From Alphaproteobacteria bacterium (lineage in GTDB: Bacteria > Pseudomonadota > Alphaproteobacteria > UBA8366): DNA of 64,000 nucleotides. Positions 45,956 to 53,680 of the stretch are shown here, piece after piece (the stretch's first letter is position 1; the number at the start of each line of letters is the position of its first letter). The notes beneath the pieces are model-generated. The model searched no databases, had not been told where the DNA came from, and saw nothing but the letters and a program-made list of their open reading frames with translations. The translations under genes and the position numbers were made by a program. Where the stretch lies: NCBI GenBank assembly GCA_009377445.1, contig WHUA01000004.1, positions 85,273-149,272 on the forward strand, read 5' to 3'.

Positions 45956-47212
45956 TTATGAGGGCAGCGGGCGGTCCCGCCCGTAGCGGACGTCGGCCCG
46001 GTTCTTGAGCCAAGTGTAGATCGTAACGCGCGAGACGCCGAACTGCCGCGCCGTTCGCGTCACGTTGTTCGCGTTCGCAGCCAGGGCGCGCCGCAGCTCG
46101 TCGACCGACGGCTTCCGCTGGCGAAGCATGGGACGGCCAACGAGGGCGCCCTCGCCGGCCGGCCGGATCGTCAGATCGTCCCGGCGCAGAAATGCGAAGT
46201 CCTTCGCCTCCAGCGCCGTGCCGTCGCACAGGATGACGGCGCGGCGCATTGCGCTGATCAGCTCGCGCACGTTTCCGGGCCAATCGTAAGATTGCAGGAG
46301 ATGCAGCACGGAATCGGACAAGCGCGGGCATGTCACCCCGTGCTCTTCGCTGACGCGGCGCAGCACATAGCGCACGAGCACATCCATGTCGCCCTGACGC
46401 TCCCGCAACGCCGGCAGCTCCAGCCGGAGGACATTGAGCCGGAAATACAGGTCCTTGCGGAAGAAGCCGCCGCGTATCGCCTGCTCGAGATTGACGTTCG
46501 TCGCCGTCACGACGCGCAGACGCACGTGGATCAGCTCCTTGCCGCCCACCCGGCGGAAAGTCATGTCCTGCAGGAATCGGAGAAGCTGCGGCTGCAAGGA
46601 CAGCGGCATGTCGCCGATCTCGTCGAGGAACAGCGTCCCCCCGTCGGCGGCTTCGATGCGCCCGATGCGCCTTTCCGTCGCGCCGGTGAATGCTCCCCGC
46701 TCGTATCCGAAAAGCTCGGACGCGACGAGGTTCTCGGGAAGACCGCCGCAATTGATCGCAATGAACGGTCCCTTGCCGAAGAACGAGCGTTCATGAATCG
46801 CTTTCGCGGCGAGCTCCTTCCCGGTGCCGCTCTCGCCGCTGATCAACACCGGCGCATCGACCTTCGCAAACCGGCGGATGCGGTCGAACACCGCCTTCAT
46901 CGCCGGGCAGGCGCCGACCATCACGGGATCGTCCTCGGCTTCGACAGCCGGCGAGCTCTTTCGCGCGCGAAGCACGTCATCGGCGACCTCTTCGATGAGG
47001 TCCGGATGACGCGCCACGATTCCAAGCAGGATATCGGCAAGTTTCTCAGGTATAAGATGTTTCAGCTCTTCGCGAGCGAGAGATGCCGCGCGTGCGTGCG
47101 GCAAACCCGAAGCGACACCGACCGGACCGATCGTAGCGCGCCCGTCCCGATGCACCGAGATCGCTACCTCCTCCCGCCTCTGCGCCGCCCTCAGAGCGGG
47201 CTGGCGCACCAC
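45956..47212 (-). CDS. Sigma-54-dependent transcriptional activator (bacterial enhancer-binding protein, Fis-type HTH)
   Basis: The AAA+ core has GESGTGKE, the GAFTGA loop (ERGAFTGA) and DWPGNVREL. The C-terminal HTH is NVTRTARQFGVSRVTIYTWLK. The N-terminal region is short (~95 aa) and is not a receiver domain. GTG start, uncertain. Confidence 0.85.
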   Translation of the reverse strand: MVRQPALRAAQRREEVAISVHRDGRATIGPVGVASGLPHARAASLAREELKHLIPEKLADILLGIVARHPDLIEEVADDVLRARKSSPAVEAEDDPVMVGACPAMKAVFDRIRRFAKVDAPVLISGESGTGKELAAKAIHERSFFGKGPFIAINCGGLPENLVASELFGYERGAFTGATERRIGRIEAADGGTLFLDEIGDMPLSLQPQLLRFLQDMTFRRVGGKELIHVRLRVVTATNVNLEQAIRGGFFRKDLYFRLNVLRLELPALRERQGDMDVLVRYVLRRVSEEHGVTCPRLSDSVLHLLQSYDWPGNVRELISAMRRAVILCDGTALEAKDFAFLRRDDLTIRPAGEGALVGRPMLRQRKPSVDELRRALAANANNVTRTARQFGVSRVTIYTWLKNRADVRYGRDRPLPS

Positions 47213-47446: not shown

Positions 47447-48799
47447 ATGAACAATATTTCCGTGTCTTATCATCGAAATATTCTTTTTTTGCTCTCTTTC
47501 GTTGTTATTCAAATCTACGTTATCAAAACTGCGCTCGCTTCGGAGTTGCGGCAATATGACAATGAAATCAGCCAACTCGAACAATCTCTGACAGAGCAGA
47601 AACAGCGCATGAAGGCGCAGGAGCGCCTGCTGGAAGAGTATCGGGCCGCACTGGACCGTCAGAGCGGCGACTTAGACGCACTCAAACGCCAGGTCCAGGA
47701 AAAGGCGGTACAAGAGAGCGCGGCTTCCGCCCCGCACGCGAACGGCATCCCCCGGGTGCAACCGGCTTCTCTTCCCGGCGATCGGGGTGCGGTCGCGCCC
47801 GTGCAACCCAACGGCGCGGGAAGGCACGGCGCAACGCCTGCCGCGAGCAAATCGGCGGTCGCGCAGTCGACCTCGGTACAGGAGGAAAAGCCGCGCGAAC
47901 GTCCCGATGTGCCGCTGATCGTGGATAGGGGCGGCGTCCTTCTCCGCCAGGGCGAAATCGTGATCGAACCGGCCCTCGATTTCAGCCTCGTCGAAACGAA
48001 CCGTGTCGAAGTCGCCGGCTTTACCGTGCTGCCGGCGATTCTCATCGGGAATTTCGATGTCTCGCAGGTCGAGCGAGAGACGCTCACCGCCGCCCTGACG
48101 GGACGGATCGGCGTCACGGACCGGCTTGAGCTGGAGGCCCGCGTCCCTTATGTCCGCCGCGACGATCGTGAAACGCGCCGGCCGATCGGAACGGGCGCCG
48201 CCGATGACGAAACCGTCGACATCGACGGCGACGGCCTCGGCGACATCGAATTCGCAGCGCACTACCAGATCAATGACGGCGTCGGCCGTTGGCCTTACTT
48301 CGTCGCCAACATGCGGGCGAAATCCGATACGGGAACCAGCCCGTTCGATGTCGACACCGATGCCTCGGGCAATCCGACCGAGCTTCCCACCGGCACAGGG
48401 TTCTGGAGCCTGCAGCCCAGCATCACCGCGATCGTGCCGACCGATCCCGCGGTCGTATTCGCCAATATCAACTACACCTGGAACATGTCGAGAGACGTCG
48501 ACGGATTCGGCGACATCGACCCCGGCGATACTTTCGGCGGAAGCCTGGGTCTCGGATTCGCGTTGAACGAAAAGCTGTCCATCAGCATGGCGTATGACCA
48601 CATCTATGTCCTGGAGACGACCCAGAACGGGGCGGACAACAACTCCGCCTTCCATGTCGGGCGGATGCTGTTCGGCGGCTCCTACCGGTTCGCCGACCGC
48701 GCCGCGGTCAACCTGAACTTCGCGGTCGGCGTCACCGAGCAGGCGCCGGATATCCAGACAGAGCTGCGCGTGCCGATAAGCTTCCGCCCGTTCAATTGA
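47447..48799 (+). CDS. Outer-membrane beta-barrel protein with N-terminal coiled coil and A/P-rich linker (FapF-like architecture)
   Basis: Has a signal peptide (..IKTALA-SE), a heptad-rich helix ELRQYDNEISQLEQSLTEQKQRMKAQERLLEEYRAALDRQSGDLDALKRQVQEK and a low-complexity linker. About 300 aa of alternating amphipathic strands follow, ending in ELRVPISFRPFN. ATG follows GGGAGG. Confidence 0.65.
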   Translation: MNNISVSYHRNILFLLSFVVIQIYVIKTALASELRQYDNEISQLEQSLTEQKQRMKAQERLLEEYRAALDRQSGDLDALKRQVQEKAVQESAASAPHANGIPRVQPASLPGDRGAVAPVQPNGAGRHGATPAASKSAVAQSTSVQEEKPRERPDVPLIVDRGGVLLRQGEIVIEPALDFSLVETNRVEVAGFTVLPAILIGNFDVSQVERETLTAALTGRIGVTDRLELEARVPYVRRDDRETRRPIGTGAADDETVDIDGDGLGDIEFAAHYQINDGVGRWPYFVANMRAKSDTGTSPFDVDTDASGNPTELPTGTGFWSLQPSITAIVPTDPAVVFANINYTWNMSRDVDGFGDIDPGDTFGGSLGLGFALNEKLSISMAYDHIYVLETTQNGADNNSAFHVGRMLFGGSYRFADRAAVNLNFAVGVTEQAPDIQTELRVPISFRPFN

Positions 48800-48814: not shown

Positions 48815-49423
48815 TCAGCGGAACGTACTGAGGTGGCGAAGCTGACTCATGCGGGTCTGCATGTTCGTCACCGCCTGCGGCTGGATGAACTGGCTCGCTT
48901 GCAGATCGAGCTGGACCGCCATCTGTTGCTGGATGACCACGTTCGACAGCGTGTTCTGCACCGTCATCATGAAGCCGTTCGCGCCGTTGAAACTGGTCGG
49001 CGCCACATTGCCGTTCCCGGCCTGGACGGATGTCACGATCTGGTTGATCGCATCGGCCAGCTTCACGTTGCCTGTGACAGGCACACCGAACCCGCTCGTG
49101 TCGAAATTCGTCACGCCCCCGGTAATCCCGGTCGCGGGCGAGAAGGTAAGCCGGCCTTCGTAAATCCGCTGGCCGTTGATCTGGGCGGCGACATCTATCG
49201 CGAAATTCAACAGGCCGGTCGGCATGACGAACCCGCCCCGCATCCGGGCGAGCTGCTCGTCCGGAACCACCTCGTAGCGCGCGAATTCGGCGACAAGCTG
49301 CCGGCCGGCCGGGCGCATCTCCTGCGCCGGCGCCGGGCCCGGCGCCATTGCACCGACAAGGGCGAAGACGGTGAGCGCCCAGCCCGCCCGCCATCTCGCC
49401 GCCCCTGCTGCAATGCGCAACAT
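48815..49423 (-). CDS. Secreted protein sharing the cluster C-terminal VQN..NV.IQ..MAV motif
   Basis: Signal peptide ..APGPAPA-QE. VTSVQAGNGNVAPTSF and FMMTVQNTLSNVVIQQQMAVQLDL are related to the repeats of the 560-aa and 121-aa proteins. The start lies 1 nt after the upstream stop. Confidence 0.6.
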   Translation of the reverse strand: MLRIAAGAARWRAGWALTVFALVGAMAPGPAPAQEMRPAGRQLVAEFARYEVVPDEQLARMRGGFVMPTGLLNFAIDVAAQINGQRIYEGRLTFSPATGITGGVTNFDTSGFGVPVTGNVKLADAINQIVTSVQAGNGNVAPTSFNGANGFMMTVQNTLSNVVIQQQMAVQLDLQASQFIQPQAVTNMQTRMSQLRHLSTFR

Positions 49424-49424
49424 C

Positions 49425-50153
49425 TCAAAAATCCCCCGGCCTCGGCATCAATAAGTTGAACGAAGCGAGACTTGCCCGACTGAGCGCCGTGCCGAACGGC
49501 GCACTGTGGCGCACTTTCCAAGCCTCGGCCCGATTGAAGGTCTCGTTGGCCGACTTGTTCTTGTTCTGAATGACGAAGGCGATGCCGTTCCACATGGCTT
49601 CAAACTCGCCGCGCGGATAGGTCTTCATGCCAAGCGCAGGATCGCCGACCAGGACCTCGGTATCGCTGACGCCCTTCACCACCACGAAATGCAGGTACCC
49701 CTTCAAATTCATCAACACCACACCGGGGATCTTCGCCTGCACGAAGGCATCGAGCGGCGCCTTGAAGCCGTTCGCCGCGAAACCCTCCCGCTCGAGGTAT
49801 TCCTTCATGTCCAGCAGCGAGAAGCCCTGCGTCCGAATCTTCGACTCCTCGCCGAACAGGAGCATCGAATCGAAAATCTCCATCTCAGTCACGGCGAAGC
49901 CGTAGTGATAGGTGAGAAGCGTCGCGAGCGCGGCCGATCCGCAACTGAAGTCGAACTGTTGCTTGATGACGTCCTTGAATCGCGCCTCCTTGATGCTCGT
50001 CACCTCGACGCGGACATAGCCCAATCCGCCCGGCGCGACGGTTCCCGCCACGGACGGCGCTGCATGCGCCAGGAAGGCCATAAGGCTGCCCGAGGCGATG
50101 CAGGCCGTGACGCAGCGCAAACGCGCCCGCGAGCTATTGAACGAAGTTGACAT
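49425..50153 (-). CDS. Periplasmic C39-like cysteine peptidase (FapD-like)
   Basis: Has an N-terminal signal/anchor. QQFDFSCGSAALATLLTY supplies the catalytic Cys, and GYLHFVVVKGVSDTEVLVGDP supplies the His and Asp. No ABC transporter domains are attached. Confidence 0.75.
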   Translation of the reverse strand: MSTSFNSSRARLRCVTACIASGSLMAFLAHAAPSVAGTVAPGGLGYVRVEVTSIKEARFKDVIKQQFDFSCGSAALATLLTYHYGFAVTEMEIFDSMLLFGEESKIRTQGFSLLDMKEYLEREGFAANGFKAPLDAFVQAKIPGVVLMNLKGYLHFVVVKGVSDTEVLVGDPALGMKTYPRGEFEAMWNGIAFVIQNKNKSANETFNRAEAWKVRHSAPFGTALSRASLASFNLLMPRPGDF

Positions 50154-50499
50154 CGACCGCCATGTTGGTCTGGATGATCACATTGTTGCCGATATTCTGA
50201 ACGGCCACGAAGGCGCCCGCCGAGTTCGCGAGCGCGCCGTTACCGATCACATTGTTCGCGGTGAACGCCCCGCTCGTCGACGAATTTCCGGTAAGCGTCG
50301 CCGTCATGTTGCCGAGCGTACAGCCCGACGCGCAGTCCGGCAGCGCCATGCCGCGCAGGGTTTCGAGCTCCGCCGCGTCGACGGGCTGTCCGAAATGCGC
50401 CTGCAGCAGCGCCGCATCGTCGGCGCGTGCTGCTCCCGAGACGGCAACCGCCGCCGCCGCGGCGAAGATGAGAGAAACTCCGATACTGGGGGTCATCAT
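50134..50499 (-). CDS. Small secreted protein carrying a single copy of the cluster repeat
   Basis: Signal peptide ..VSGAARA-DD. NVIGNGALANSAGAFVAVQNIGNNVIIQTNMAV aligns position by position with the NTIDGGAFNDGAGIATVQQNNGDNNVINA unit of the 560-aa protein. ATG 50499 is preferred over TTG 50511. It overlaps the next gene by 20 nt. Confidence 0.6.
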   Translation of the reverse strand: MMTPSIGVSLIFAAAAAVAVSGAARADDAALLQAHFGQPVDAAELETLRGMALPDCASGCTLGNMTATLTGNSSTSGAFTANNVIGNGALANSAGAFVAVQNIGNNVIIQTNMAVDVNFVQ

Positions 50500-50542: not shown

Positions 50543-50570
50543 GGAAGGTGAGGACACGCCCCCACCTTCC
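50543..50570 (-). terminator. Stem-loop between the repeat-protein gene and downstream genes (possible partial terminator/attenuator)
   Basis: GGAAGGTG-N12-CACCTTCC is a perfect 8-bp stem 18 nt after the stop at 50588. On the transcribed strand it is followed by ACCTCTTTGTT, which is only a weak U-tract. Confidence 0.35.
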
Positions 50571-50587: not shown

Positions 50588-52270
50588 TTAAGGCGTAATG
50601 ACGTTGGCCACCACGGCAATCGAAGACTGTATCGCGTTGTTGCTGCCGTTGTTCTGCTGCACCGTCTTGATGCCGGCGAAGCCGTTGAACGAGTCGGACA
50701 GCGTGTTCTGGTATCCCGGCGGCACGTTCGTCGGCGCGATGACTGCAATATTTCCGGATACCACCGCCGTGATCGTCGTATCGTCGACGATACTGCCATT
50801 GAACCCGACGAAGTTCGCATTGTCGCTGAGCCCGGCGACGACCGCCTTGGATGCGTTGATCACGTTGTTGTCGCCGTTGTTCTGCTGCACGGTGGCGATA
50901 CCGGCGCCGTCGTTGAAGGCGCCGCCGTCGATCGTATTGACGCGGTCGACGTTGGCGGTCTCGACGGCGAGATTGTTCGTGACCTCGGCATGCGTACGCG
51001 CGTCTACCGCCGCATCCCCTCCGTCGATCTGACCGCTGGTGAACAGCGTGGCGACAACGGCAGTCAGCGCATTCATTGCGTTGTTGTTGCCGTTGTTCTG
51101 CTGCACCGCCGTCAAGCCGACGGCTTCCGAGAACGAGCCCTCGTCGATGGTGTTGATCCGGTTCTGATCCTGGTCCGTCGTGTTGAGGCTCGAGTTGTTG
51201 TTCGTGACAAACCCGGCCGCGCTCACGACAACAGCGGACGCGTCATCGATATCATCCACGGTGAGGAAATGTGCCCGCACCGCGTTGCCGACGTTCATGG
51301 CGTTATTGTCGCCGTTGTTCTGCTGCACGTTGACGATGCCGCCCGGACCCACGAACGCATCGCTGATGAGGTTCGTCCGATCGTACGGCGTCGGCGGTCC
51401 GGCGTCGCTCTGGGCAAAGCCGGTATTGTTGGTCACCACCGCGGTTGCAACGAGCGATTGCAGTGCGTCTTCGCTGGGGTCTACGTCGGTCGTGGTGCCG
51501 AGGTCGGCGATGACGGAGTTGGCCGCCTGGATGACGTTGCCGTTGCCGTTGTTCTGCTGCACCGACGCCATGCCGACGAACTCCGCGAATGCGCCGCCGT
51601 CGATCGTGTTGGTCCGCTCGCCGGTGATATCGCCGCCGCTGACGACGTTCACCTCCGATGTGATAAGGCCGGTCACGGTCGCTTCGAGGAGAACTTCCTG
51701 CGAGCTGTCGTCGTGGTTCTCGCCATTCTGGCCGAAGAGGTTCGGGCCGATATTGGCCGAAACGACGTCGCCGATCCCGAGGACGTTCCCGTCGCCGTTG
51801 TTCTGCTGCACATCGACGATGCCGCTGGCGCCCGCGAACGCATCGGTGATCGTATTCTCGCGGAAGGACGACGCGAGCGGCCCCGGCGCGTTGTTGGAGT
51901 AGTCGCCGCCGATCGTCGACCCGCGAAGCCAGAGCTGCTGCGACACGTCACCCCCGCTCCCAGGGGCCGCCGTGCTGATGACGACGTTCGACGCGATTCC
52001 TAACGCGTTGCTGTTGCCGTTGTTCTGTTGGTCGTGGCTGATGCCCGTAAAATTGTTGGCATAGCCGCCACTGATATCGTTGCTTCGCAGAGATCCGGGA
52101 TCCAGCGTAAAGTTGACGCCTACGAACTGATCCAGCGTGAGCTGATCCGGCAAGGTGGGTACGAGCCCATTGTCGTTCTGCTGGATCTGCTGTGCGAGCG
52201 CCCCGCTCGAGGCCGCCCCGAGCAGAACCAGGGCCGAGGCCGAAGCCAGCAATACGTTTTTGAAGTTCAT
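50588..52270 (-). CDS. Secreted 560-aa N/Q/G-rich protein with seven VQQNNGxNN repeat units (putative fibre/amyloid major subunit)
   Basis: ATG 52270 follows AAGGAG. Signal peptide ..SSGALA-QQ. It carries seven units of the form N-T-I-D-x-x-F-x-x-x-x-G-I-x-x-V-Q-Q-N-N-G-x-x-N-x-x-x-x-x-x-x-V. No Cys residues and no recognisable anchor, autotransporter or RTX domain. Confidence 0.75.
   Translation of the reverse strand: MNFKNVLLASASALVLLGAASSGALAQQIQQNDNGLVPTLPDQLTLDQFVGVNFTLDPGSLRSNDISGGYANNFTGISHDQQNNGNSNALGIASNVVISTAAPGSGGDVSQQLWLRGSTIGGDYSNNAPGPLASSFRENTITDAFAGASGIVDVQQNNGDGNVLGIGDVVSANIGPNLFGQNGENHDDSSQEVLLEATVTGLITSEVNVVSGGDITGERTNTIDGGAFAEFVGMASVQQNNGNGNVIQAANSVIADLGTTTDVDPSEDALQSLVATAVVTNNTGFAQSDAGPPTPYDRTNLISDAFVGPGGIVNVQQNNGDNNAMNVGNAVRAHFLTVDDIDDASAVVVSAAGFVTNNNSSLNTTDQDQNRINTIDEGSFSEAVGLTAVQQNNGNNNAMNALTAVVATLFTSGQIDGGDAAVDARTHAEVTNNLAVETANVDRVNTIDGGAFNDGAGIATVQQNNGDNNVINASKAVVAGLSDNANFVGFNGSIVDDTTITAVVSGNIAVIAPTNVPPGYQNTLSDSFNGFAGIKTVQQNNGSNNAIQSSIAVVANVITP
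50646..52033 (-). repeat. In-frame periodic coding repeat (seven copies of CCGTTGTTCTGCTGCAC on the plus strand)
   Basis: Copies lie at 50646, 50874, 51090, 51312, 51546 and 51795, with a variant at 52017 (CCGTTGTTCTGTTGGTC). Spacings are 228, 216, 222, 234, 249 and 222 nt, all multiples of 3. Confidence 0.85.
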
Positions 52271-52421
52271 GTCTTGCTCACTCCTTATGTATGACACACA
52301 GGTTCCGACATGCAGTTTTCGTCGTTTCTGCCTTCGGCCGCTGCGCAAACGAGTGCCCGTGAGGCGGCCCGGCCTCTGCCCAAAAAGGGACACGCCGAAC
52401 AAGAAGACATTTGTGGAAGGC

Positions 52422-52436
52422 GCAATGATCGTGCCA
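52422..52436 (-). promoter_or_regulatory. Consensus sigma-54 promoter upstream of the repeat-protein gene
   Basis: The minus strand reads TGGCACG-ATCA-TTGC, an exact match to TGGCACG-N4-TTGC. It lies about 150 nt upstream of ATG 52270. Confidence 0.7.
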
Positions 52437-52606: not shown

Positions 52607-53224
52607 TTATTTCCAATCCTGGTAGATCGCGAGAAGCGTACGCCGATCCGGAACGCCGGTTTCCGGCAGCTTCTTCTTTTTCTGGTAGGTGCTGATCGCC
52701 GTCGCCGTACCCTTGCCGAACTTGCCGTCGACGGCGCCCTTGTAGAGTCCCTGTTGCTTCAATGTCTGCTGCACGCGGCGTACGGTTTCCTCGAAGACGT
52801 GGATCTTTCCCTTGCCGGCCTCGATGCTTGCGACCGGCGATTGGCTCTCGATCCGGTATTTGTGCAGCTCGCGCGTCACGACATAGACGGCCGACGCGAA
52901 ATTGACTTTCTTGTTGCCGTCGCAGAAGGTCGCGACCACGCCGGATATGGCGTCTAGATCGAAATCCGCGGCGGCGTCATACGTCTCCGCGCCGAACTGG
53001 CTGTAGGCGGTAATGTAGCCGTTGGCCCATTCCCGGAAGAAGAGATAGGCCGGCGACGCGGCCTTGCGTTCGGCGAGGTAGCGTTCGCAGGGCTGGCTGC
53101 CGAACCCGCGGACAAAGTAGTTTCCTGCCTTGTCCCCTGCGCTTGCCGCGCTGGCCGACATCATGACGGCGGCGATGAACACCAGCAGCGCCAGCGTCTT
53201 CTTGTTGCTTTTCTTCGTAGCCAC
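52607..53224 (-). CDS. Secreted protein with C-terminal peptidoglycan-binding (PG_binding_1-like) domain
   Basis: GTG 53224 follows AAAGGGGA. Signal peptide KKTLALLVFIAAVMMSASAASA. The C terminus VRRVQQTLKQQGLYKGAVDGKFGKGTATAISTYQKKKKLPETGVPDRRT is a typical PG-binding repeat. The upstream part of ORF 52607..53635 is rejected. Confidence 0.65.
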   Translation of the reverse strand: MATKKSNKKTLALLVFIAAVMMSASAASAGDKAGNYFVRGFGSQPCERYLAERKAASPAYLFFREWANGYITAYSQFGAETYDAAADFDLDAISGVVATFCDGNKKVNFASAVYVVTRELHKYRIESQSPVASIEAGKGKIHVFEETVRRVQQTLKQQGLYKGAVDGKFGKGTATAISTYQKKKKLPETGVPDRRTLLAIYQDWK

Positions 53225-53265: not shown

Positions 53266-53622
53266 TCAGCGGACCTGCACGTTGACGCCGCGCGCGACAG
53301 TCGAGTTGACGCCGCTCCCCGGCGACACCCCGTTTCGTTTCGGCCGGCCCAACTCGTCGAACAGGATGACCGATACATCGCCCGGCGGCGGCGCATCCGC
53401 CTCGACGGCGGTTTTCGCCCCCAGGCCGGAGACCGCTCGCAATTCGGCATCGTTTAGCTCGCCGCGGGCCGCAAAGGTCCCGGCGGCGCCCGTGCCGGGC
53501 ATGCCTGCCGCGTCGGCTGCCGTGACGCGCGGACGGATTTCGTCCGCCACCGCCGGCATCGCCGCGAGGGCCGTTCCAGCGCATAGCATTGTTGTCGCCA
53601 ACAGGCGACACGAGAACCGCAT
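53266..53622 (-). CDS. Small secreted protein (118 aa), first gene of the minus-strand cluster
   Basis: ATG follows GAGGTG. Signal peptide MRFSCRLLATTMLCAGTALAAMPAVA. Third-position GC is high. I recognise no family. Confidence 0.5.
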   Translation of the reverse strand: MRFSCRLLATTMLCAGTALAAMPAVADEIRPRVTAADAAGMPGTGAAGTFAARGELNDAELRAVSGLGAKTAVEADAPPPGDVSVILFDELGRPKRNGVSPGSGVNSTVARGVNVQVR

Positions 53623-53665
53623 CGTATTCGCTCACCTCGCCGTCATCGTATTGTCGCGAAAAGCA

Positions 53666-53680
53666 GCAAGAACCGTGCCG
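53666..53680 (-). promoter_or_regulatory. Sigma-54 promoter upstream of the 118-aa gene
   Basis: The minus strand reads CGGCACG-GTTC-TTGC; only the first base differs from TGGCACG-N4-TTGC. It lies about 45 nt upstream of ATG 53622. Confidence 0.65.

Follow-up and report, generated by a model that had tools for sequence, protein, structure and literature searches.

The stretch analysed here, a window of 64,000 nucleotides (nt) from contig WHUA01000004.1 of an alphaproteobacterial genome assembly (GCA_009377445.1), harbours a gene cluster for three secreted proteins of 560, 121 and 202 amino acids (aa), a C39 peptidase and an outer membrane barrel protein. A first-pass annotation had proposed that the three secreted proteins have a repeat or C-terminal motif in common and represent candidate major subunit, nucleator and minor subunit. 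The three proteins indeed carry one homologous unit, and the locus probably encodes a Fap-related export and assembly system with three substrates that possess a common Fap-type C-terminal unit, the two small ones being processed by the C39 peptidase. The core of the locus consists of the following genes:

50588..52270, minus strand: large gene, encoding the 560-aa protein, candidate major fibre subunit with a Sec signal peptide and seven periods of ~75 aa
50134..50499, minus strand: gene for the 121-aa protein with signal peptide, double-glycine (GG)-type leader and a mature part of ~70 aa
49425..50153, minus strand: C39 peptidase gene, 242 aa, FapD-like, periplasmic, with its own signal peptide
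48815..49423, minus strand: gene for the 202-aa protein, FapE-like, with signal peptide, GG leader, N-terminal module, one unit and a 28-aa tail
47447..48799, plus strand: barrel gene, 450 aa, FapF-like outer-membrane transporter with coiled coil, linker and barrel, convergent with the operon

As initially described, the 121-aa gene overlaps the start of the C39 gene by 20 nt and a single nucleotide separates the C39 stop from the 202-aa start (TGA-G-ATG).

Seven units of ~40 residues with VQQNNG cores at residues 80, 154, 237, 315, 389, 461 and 537 are found in the 560-aa protein, which ends exactly with ...VQQNNGSNNAIQSSIAVVANVITP as claimed, and one copy each is present in the 121-aa and 202-aa proteins. 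The copies on which the comparison centres are:

50591..50713, minus strand: C-terminal unit of the 560-aa protein (~aa 520-560), the copy closest to the units of the small proteins
50137..50256, minus strand: only unit of the 121-aa protein (aa 82-121), at its very C-terminal end, located with the repeat model and the unit profiles
48902..48997, minus strand: unit of the 202-aa protein (aa 143-174), located with the repeat model and the unit and full-length profiles

The placement in the 202-aa protein departs from the first-pass annotation in that the protein does not end with the motif, as 28 residues come after it, and in that the stretch VTSVQAGNGNV, taken for a further copy, aligns with the strand preceding the unit. 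Likewise, the designation of the three proteins as paralogous is limited to the unit or, in the 121-aa protein, to the last ~63 residues, and does not extend to the whole proteins.

That the common unit reflects homology is borne out by profile comparisons, shuffled controls and a genome-wide scan. As the default composition correction of HMMER erases the score of the 121-aa protein (0.2 bits with a bias term of 15.4 bits), this correction was switched off and shuffled sequences were used as the control instead. Scored in this way with a profile of the seven repeats of the 560-aa protein, the 121-aa protein reaches 15.5 bits, which none of 1000 shuffles attains, and the 202-aa protein a borderline 8.0 bits. 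A repeat hidden Markov model (HMM) with the consensus RSNTIDGSFNGASGVATVQQNNGDNNAIGAATAVVANVG, for which 751 repeats from 93 large-protein homologues were reduced to 379 non-redundant copies, gives 13.7 bits for the 121-aa and 12.3 bits for the 202-aa protein, neither of which is reached by any of 300 shuffles (z ~7), 21-27 bits for distant family members, and noise level for all four controls, the peptidase, the barrel, the peptidoglycan-binding and the 118-aa proteins of the locus. Full-length profile-profile comparisons, in which no segments were picked by hand, relate all three families to each other, so that the similarity of the motif, the significance of which had been left to a proper profile comparison, is significant:

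121 family against 202 family: E=2.4e-10, probability 96.8%, 41 columns
121 family against 560 family: E=4.7e-7, probability 92.5%, 63 columns
202 family against 560 family: E=3e-4, probability 39.7%, 45 columns

Profile comparisons restricted to the unit score above all 150 of 150 column-shuffled controls. Among the 37,919 six-frame open reading frames of the 4.55-Mb genome, each of the three unit profiles singles out only these three genes (next frame <=9.4 bits), and a whole-genome search with the 121-family alignment has the 202-aa unit as its sole other match (E=1.1e-5).

The alternative to common descent, namely that the resemblance is a by-product of a composition rich in asparagine, glutamine, glycine and valine, could draw on the loss of the score under the default HMMER correction and on pairwise BLASTP comparisons, which are marginal with E=0.16 for the 121-aa versus the 560-aa protein and 0.004 and 2e-4 for the remaining pairs. 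However, neither sequence nor column shuffles, which retain the composition, reach the real scores, distant family members score well above them and the genome-wide scans are specific, so that a purely compositional explanation has been tested and rejected and is given practically no weight. With profiles significant and BLASTP marginal, the motif is considered real and clearly visible by profiles only.

The relationship is closest at the C-terminus of the large protein. The best hhalign matches of both small families fall on the C-terminal unit of the 560-aa protein, and within the large family C-terminal repeats score higher than internal ones on the unit profiles of the small proteins (26.1 versus 17.5 bits, p=1e-15, and 22.4 versus 11.8 bits, p=4e-24). 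For the 121-aa protein the alignment pairs aa 59-121 with aa 494-560 of the large protein over their entire length (E=4.7e-7). Consisting of a signal peptide (~aa 1-26), a GG-type leader to aa 51 and a mature part of ~70 aa, the 121-aa protein would in effect provide, behind a leader, a free copy of the last period (~65 residues) of the large protein.

The leaders of the two small proteins connect them with the peptidase gene that they flank:

50347..50382, minus strand: leader motif of the 121-aa protein, VDAAELETLRGM (aa 40-51), predicted C39 cut after G50-M51, next residue A
49232..49267, minus strand: leader motif of the 202-aa protein, VPDEQLARMRGG (aa 53-64), predicted C39 cut after G63-G64, next residue F

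Both leaders follow Sec signal peptides and show hydrophobic residues at positions -12, -7 and -4, an acidic residue at -8 or -9 and G at -2. The leader of the 202-aa protein fits the double-glycine rule (V-12, L-7, M-4, G-2, G-1), as does the leader of the 121-aa protein except at -1 (M; K, R or G in relatives), with R49 and G50 invariant in the 121-aa family, and one leader register extends across the 121-like, 202-like and canonical FapE families. A leader HMM, from which the window's own sequences were excluded and in which close homologues were kept, recovers only the 202-aa (29.9 bits) and the 121-aa protein (23.9 bits) from the 37,919 frames of the genome, the next best frame scoring 9.7 bits, and the large family has a signal peptide and no GG-type leader. 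As the leader is found only in the two small proteins, the genes of which both flank the C39 gene, the 121-aa and 202-aa proteins are predicted substrates of the C39 peptidase. Directly after the predicted cut site of the 121-aa protein is located a cysteine pair, PDCASGC (50323-50346, minus strand, aa 52-59; CxxxC or CxxC in relatives), which occurs in the alphaproteobacterial clade only and recalls the C-terminal CxxC of FapC.

The peptidase itself matches Pfam Peptidase_C39 (4e-22) and, among the NCBIfam models, FapD (1e-48; 165.6 bits with a cutoff of 330 bits) better than FilB (2e-34; 119 bits with a cutoff of 475 bits). Its catalytic Cys (FSCGSAA), His (LHFVV) and Asp (VGDP) are conserved and align with the peptidase domains of PCAT1 and ComA, and its N-terminus, judged by eye, resembles a signal peptide. 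According to the literature, the substrate of FapD in the Fap system is unknown, the Fap proteins lack canonical C39 sites and only FapE is seemingly N-terminally processed (PMC5557850, PMC6173800); the target of FapD and the role of FapE have been open questions since 2017 (PMC5557850, PMC6173800). The unambiguous double-glycine-type leaders on a FapE-like protein and a second small subunit make the question of the FapD substrate directly testable.

The 202-aa protein is read as a distant FapE homologue on account of its gene position and N-terminal module. Like fapE, its gene is situated between the C39 and the barrel gene, and hhalign relates the 202-aa family to 15 FapE sequences with a probability of 95% (E=3.6e-8) over the N-terminal 31 columns. 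The match covers the leader and the first strand, ...DEQLARMRGG followed by FVMPTGLLNFAI in the 202-aa protein and ...DSEMAELRGR followed by YVMPGRIISFGI in FapE; the NCBIfam FapE model gives 12.8 bits with a cutoff of 250 bits. The C-terminus of FapE has been described as asparagine/glutamine (N/Q)-rich, like the repeats (PMC5557850), and AlphaFold3 models show a layer of FapE on the final FapB/C layer (bioRxiv 10.64898/2026.10.01.755530); by analogy, a role of the FapE-like protein as base or initiator is plausible. The first-pass annotation had put forward the 121-aa protein as candidate nucleator and the 202-aa protein as candidate minor subunit; on the published Fap models the FapE-like protein would rather be expected at the base. 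In the AlphaFold2 model of the 202-aa protein (predicted local distance difference test, pLDDT, 58 overall and ~78 in the core) the unit makes up the final two strands. The 28-aa tail after the unit (aa 175-202; 48818-48901, minus strand) is predicted to be helical with low confidence; in related FapE-like proteins the unit is followed by tails of similar length, which bear a loose resemblance to the ...NLDQLKGLRTLGY end of Pseudomonas FapE, and the tail may serve for docking or anchoring. In some genomes a FapE-like protein with a GG/AG leader is encoded convergently with a FapF-like barrel gene (L027 10337-10933; L028 250-921; L048 27-470), with no C39 or 121-like gene in the ~10-kb stretch, which may represent a third, reduced layout.

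The barrel protein aligns over its barrel with the FapF structure 5O65 of the PDB (E=4.8e-30) and end to end with the NCBIfam FapF model (3.6e-45; 154.5 bits with a cutoff of 700 bits), and it scores 63 bits with FilC, for which the cutoff is 630 bits. As these scores remain under the curated cutoffs, barrel and peptidase are considered relatives of FapF and FapD and not equivalogs. The first-pass annotation had suggested that the arrangement mirrors the logic of FapC, FapB and FapE. A Fap-type secretion locus is indeed present; with homologues of FapF and FapD and a probable distant homologue of FapE, the link to Fap is to be revised from logic alone to descent. Not retained is the comparison of the 121-aa protein with FapB, as the 121-aa protein has a C39-type leader absent from FapB, possesses one unit versus three and shows no significant match to the FapB/C repeats; one distant 121-like protein matches the NCBIfam FapB model (3.9e-4). 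No match to FapA was found at the locus and the order A-B-C-D-E-F is not seen (large, small, D, E, with F convergent). Since FapE of the Fap operon was not found in 14 control genomes, real fap and intermediate operons for comparison were taken from a scan of a 401-genome sample of the phylum.

The 560-aa protein is likely the major subunit. Its AlphaFold2 model is a regular all-beta structure (pLDDT 86.9; predicted template modelling score 0.90), a search of the PDB with its sequence gave no match, and the weak neighbours of the model in Foldseek are beta-helix/solenoid proteins. Among the 92 homologue clusters of the protein some distant ones have weak or faint precomputed matches to Pfam PF27129 'FapBC'. 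The repeat profile of the large protein compared with the FapB/C repeats yields E=7.6e-5 with a probability of 62% in hhalign, above 150 of 150 column shuffles, and the repeat HMM gives 13.9 bits on Pseudomonas FapB, reached by none of 300 shuffles, and a non-significant 5.7 bits on FapC. The repeats of the 560-aa protein thus appear weakly related to the FapB/C repeats.

It may be asked whether the 560-aa protein is rather a monomeric beta-helical surface adhesin or matrix protein, with the small proteins as processing or chaperone factors whose similarity arose by duplication of a gene fragment without a role in assembly. AlphaFold2 folds the 560-aa monomer alone with high confidence, and monomeric beta-helix enzymes, autotransporter passengers and tailspikes make up the whole set of weak Foldseek neighbours. 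Nevertheless, the unit has been retained in hundreds of species and no other part of either small family is as well conserved, which points to selection on the unit itself, and the machinery is homologous to a dedicated amyloid exporter. A monomeric protein is considered very unlikely. In one soil metagenome lineage five large-protein homologues of ~785-808 aa are encoded in tandem (L004 1-12427; L005 405-8385), with no C39 or barrel gene within 10 kb and around a dozen paralogues on one 5.3-Mb contig.

The arrangement of the locus is widespread. The order peptidoglycan-binding protein, large protein, ~120-aa protein, C39 peptidase, 150-200-aa protein and barrel recurs on a 652-kb metagenomic contig, on a 4-Mb contig and in Indioceanicola profundi (L001, L003, L006), with a sigma-54 activator gene close by in both metagenomic contigs. 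A pattern scan with one genome per species revealed at least 273 loci with a 121-like protein, in genera such as Lysobacter, Dyella, Massilia, Nitrosomonas, Ralstonia, Vibrio, Paraglaciecola, Acidithiobacillus and Methylobacter and in metagenome-assembled genomes (MAGs) of Rickettsiales and Rhodospirillaceae. Among the 80 loci fetched, the C39 gene is present in 79 and the FapF-like barrel gene in 74, the exceptions being short contigs, and in the 401-genome sample a barrel gene occurs in 13 of the 14 genomes with a 121-like match, within ~3 kb when on one contig. This co-occurrence indicates that homologues of the 121-aa protein do not occur on their own, and independence of the large protein, which the first-pass annotation had kept in view, is not observed either, as in most loci a larger unit-bearing protein is encoded directly upstream. 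Complete loci with small protein, C39 peptidase and barrel outside of Pseudomonadota (L064, Nitrospira sp. NS4; L113, a Pseudobdellovibrionaceae MAG) suggest horizontal spread. In a survey from 2013, matches to FapB/C and FapE in Acidithiobacillus were called remnants of a deleted fap operon and many FapD/FapF matches 'false-positive' (PMC3792158); plausibly, these remnants and matches belong to the second system described here.

In most of these loci the large protein carries a single C-terminal unit after a long low-complexity region; multi-unit large proteins, with seven units in a Rhodospirillaceae MAG, four in Acidithiobacillus and two in Nitrosomonas eutropha, are a minority. It seems that the common C-terminal unit is the ancestral one and that the internal repeats were amplified later in this clade. 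The distance of the unit to the stop is strictly confined in the 80 loci, to 3-6 residues in large, 1-3 in small and 22-27 in FapE-like proteins. This strict position leaves room for the unit as an export signal: the FapF-type transporter or its periplasmic coiled coil could recognise it mainly as a C-terminal signal for export or docking, in which case it would not be a templating surface and would be common to the three proteins because one channel serves them all. The single C-terminal copy of most large proteins and the greater closeness of the C-terminal copy of multi-repeat proteins to the small-protein units would fit, and the Fap secretion signal is unknown (PMC5557850). On the other hand, the seven copies of the 560-aa protein include internal ones, which are confidently modelled as part of a structural beta core, and the unit shows a weak relationship to the repeats of FapB/C, which have been described as the amyloid repeats of fibre subunits. 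A mainly signalling unit is considered unlikely; export and structural roles are compatible, and the C-terminal position would permit an export role, alone or in addition.

Under the preferred reading, a Fap-related system with a structural unit, Sec would carry all the proteins across the inner membrane, the periplasmic C39 peptidase would trim the leaders of the 121-aa and 202-aa proteins and a FapF-like trimer would export the 560-aa, 121-aa and 202-aa proteins. Outside the cell the common unit would be the stacking surface that joins the small proteins to the beta-solenoid of the large subunit, with the FapE-like protein at the cell-proximal base and the single-period 121-aa protein as primer or cap, two roles that no sequence feature tells apart.

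The roles of the two small proteins might also be the reverse of those in the first-pass annotation, with the FapE-like 202-aa protein as anchor and nucleator and the 121-aa protein as chain terminator or tip cap that limits fibre length, or as a decoy in the periplasm, blocking the growing end ahead of export. FapE is indispensable for the production of Fap and has been proposed as starter of secretion and assembly, and the mature 121-aa protein, as one terminal period of the large subunit, could have its stacking face on one side only; the clade-specific CxxxC pair directly after its cut site is a further point. However, besides the lack of a feature that distinguishes primer from cap, the 121-like gene is as universal at these loci as the C39 gene, which suggests a core and not a modulating function. 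Such a reversal is conceivable and is judged somewhat unlikely.

Expression signals and neighbouring genes complete the picture of the locus:

50543..50570, minus strand: GC-rich hairpin in the interval between the large and the 121-aa gene, with a stem of 12 pairs and a T-rich tail behind it; candidate attenuator or 3' hairpin that stabilises the mRNA
52421..52436, minus strand: sigma-54-type -24/-12 site TGGCACGATCATTGCG with one mismatch, ~150 nt upstream of the large gene
53665-53680, minus strand: sigma-54-type site with one mismatch, upstream of the 118-aa gene
45956..47212, minus strand: sigma-54 enhancer-binding activator gene, adjoining the barrel gene, a pairing kept in relatives (L001, L003)
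52607-53152, minus strand: gene for a peptidoglycan-binding (PG_binding_1) protein, upstream of the large gene
53266-53622, minus strand: gene for a 118-aa secreted protein, first gene of the upstream transcription unit

Four related loci have strong hairpins of different sequence in an equal position (z -3.0 to -6.1). A conserved hairpin after the large gene fits an abundant major versus rarer downstream products, and would keep the accessory proteins scarce. The window contains only three one-mismatch matches to TGGCAC-N5-TTGCW, two of which lie directly upstream of the two operon starts, beside the sigma-54 activator gene. A PG_binding_1 gene upstream of the large gene is also present in L001 and L003 and may code for a cell-wall tether, and a peptidoglycan-binding homologue is encoded between fapE and fapF in two alphaproteobacterial fapBCDEF-type operons (L025 7410-8042; L040 1905-2501). 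The 118-aa protein, a homologue of which is encoded at the matching position in L001, contains a stretch that by eye looks like a leader, LNDAELRAVSGL, with some resemblance to the ELSD..G region of Pseudomonas FapA; as a leader-bearing protein, suggested by eye and by a regular expression, it finds no support in the leader HMM.

Several observations weigh against a Fap-type system that processes and assembles these proteins. Apart from the 12.8-bit FapE match, the 560-aa, 121-aa and 202-aa proteins have no direct family match in Pfam or NCBIfam, and every Fap family score is far under the NCBIfam curated cutoff. The units of the small proteins are not significantly similar to canonical FapB/C repeats (E=0.011 and 0.013), the homology of the 202-aa protein to FapE is not significant beyond the N-terminal 31 columns and a Foldseek search of the PDB with the 560-aa model retrieved no significant solved relative (best E=0.59). 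With M, K or R and not G, A or S at -1, the cleavage predicted for the 121-aa family is non-canonical. The single unit in most large proteins argues that stacking of internal repeats into a solenoid is not a general property of the family, and the hairpin of the window itself is not significant (z -1.3 to -1.6). Finally, fibre formation, amyloid properties, cleavage and secretion are inferred here and go beyond the identification of genes. Nevertheless, the locus is best described as a divergent relative of the Pseudomonas Fap functional-amyloid system ('type 2'), in which the unit is a Fap-type beta-arch at or near the C-terminus.

A more far-reaching interpretation, put forward tentatively and with less than even confidence, is that the unit represents the common C-terminal 'handshake' of a large unrecognised Fap sister family, of which species genomes contain at least 273 loci and which is distributed over Alpha-, Beta- and Gammaproteobacteria and some further groups. 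Two leader-bearing proteins with one unit each, namely a FapE-like base and the copy of the last period, would be activated by the free periplasmic C39 peptidase and would then prime or cap assembly of the large subunit, which in most species has one unit per molecule. If so, the fibre architecture would differ from FapC or CsgA solenoids, and the first clear substrates and cut sites for FapD-type peptidases would be at hand. Known Fap-type fibre machinery would be extended to Alphaproteobacteria and many environmental genera, and natural single-unit and multi-unit subunits would become available for the study of templated beta-solenoid assembly. While Fap itself is already known, the statistical proof of the three-way unit, the recognition that the 121-aa protein is a copy of the last period equipped with a leader, the genome-wide specificity of the leader and the three-substrate layout, which defines a widespread unannotated sister system, are new.

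With respect to known systems, the putative Fil pilus system of Acinetobacter likewise combines a free C39 peptidase with a FapF-related outer-membrane protein; yet the Fil models score under the Fap models for both peptidase (FilB 119 versus FapD 166 bits) and barrel (FilC 63 versus FapF 154 bits), far below their cutoffs. A literature search found nothing relevant on Fil, nor on Fap-like systems in Alphaproteobacteria. The C39 domains of bacteriocin and competence ATP-binding cassette (ABC) exporters such as PCAT1 and ComA share with the present peptidase the aligned domain, the catalytic Cys/His/Asp and the classic spacing of the leader, with E at -8. In contrast to these exporters, the peptidase is here a free periplasmic protein and not part of a cytoplasmic ABC transporter, the leaders come after a Sec signal peptide and -1 is M, K or R in the 121-aa family.

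With curli, in which CsgA is the major subunit and CsgB the nucleator, the locus has the logic of a multi-repeat major subunit and a smaller paralogue with a shared repeat in common, and the logic only. The three proteins match no Pfam family including the curli repeat (E<=10), and no curli export proteins (CsgG/E/F) were detected among the cluster proteins scanned. Instead, a FapF-type barrel and a C39 peptidase are present, and the small proteins carry leaders that are predicted to be cut off.

From Pseudomonas Fap the locus differs by the order large, small, D, E with F convergent, the lack of a convincing FapA and the peptidoglycan-binding gene upstream. The large subunit has seven ~75-aa periods versus three repeats, the small subunit one unit and a C39-type leader, in contrast to the three repeats of the unprocessed FapB, and the FapE-like protein a canonical GG at the cut site in place of the G-R or G-K of canonical FapE. 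Also, the host is an alphaproteobacterium, and the Fap survey of 2013 was without Alphaproteobacteria (PMC3792158). Common to both systems are a homologous FapF-like channel and a homologous periplasmic FapD-like C39 peptidase, with a FapE-like, probably homologous protein encoded between them, as well as N/Q-rich repeats, those at the present locus appearing weakly related to FapB/C, with a repeat at or within ~10 residues of the C-terminus of the subunits.

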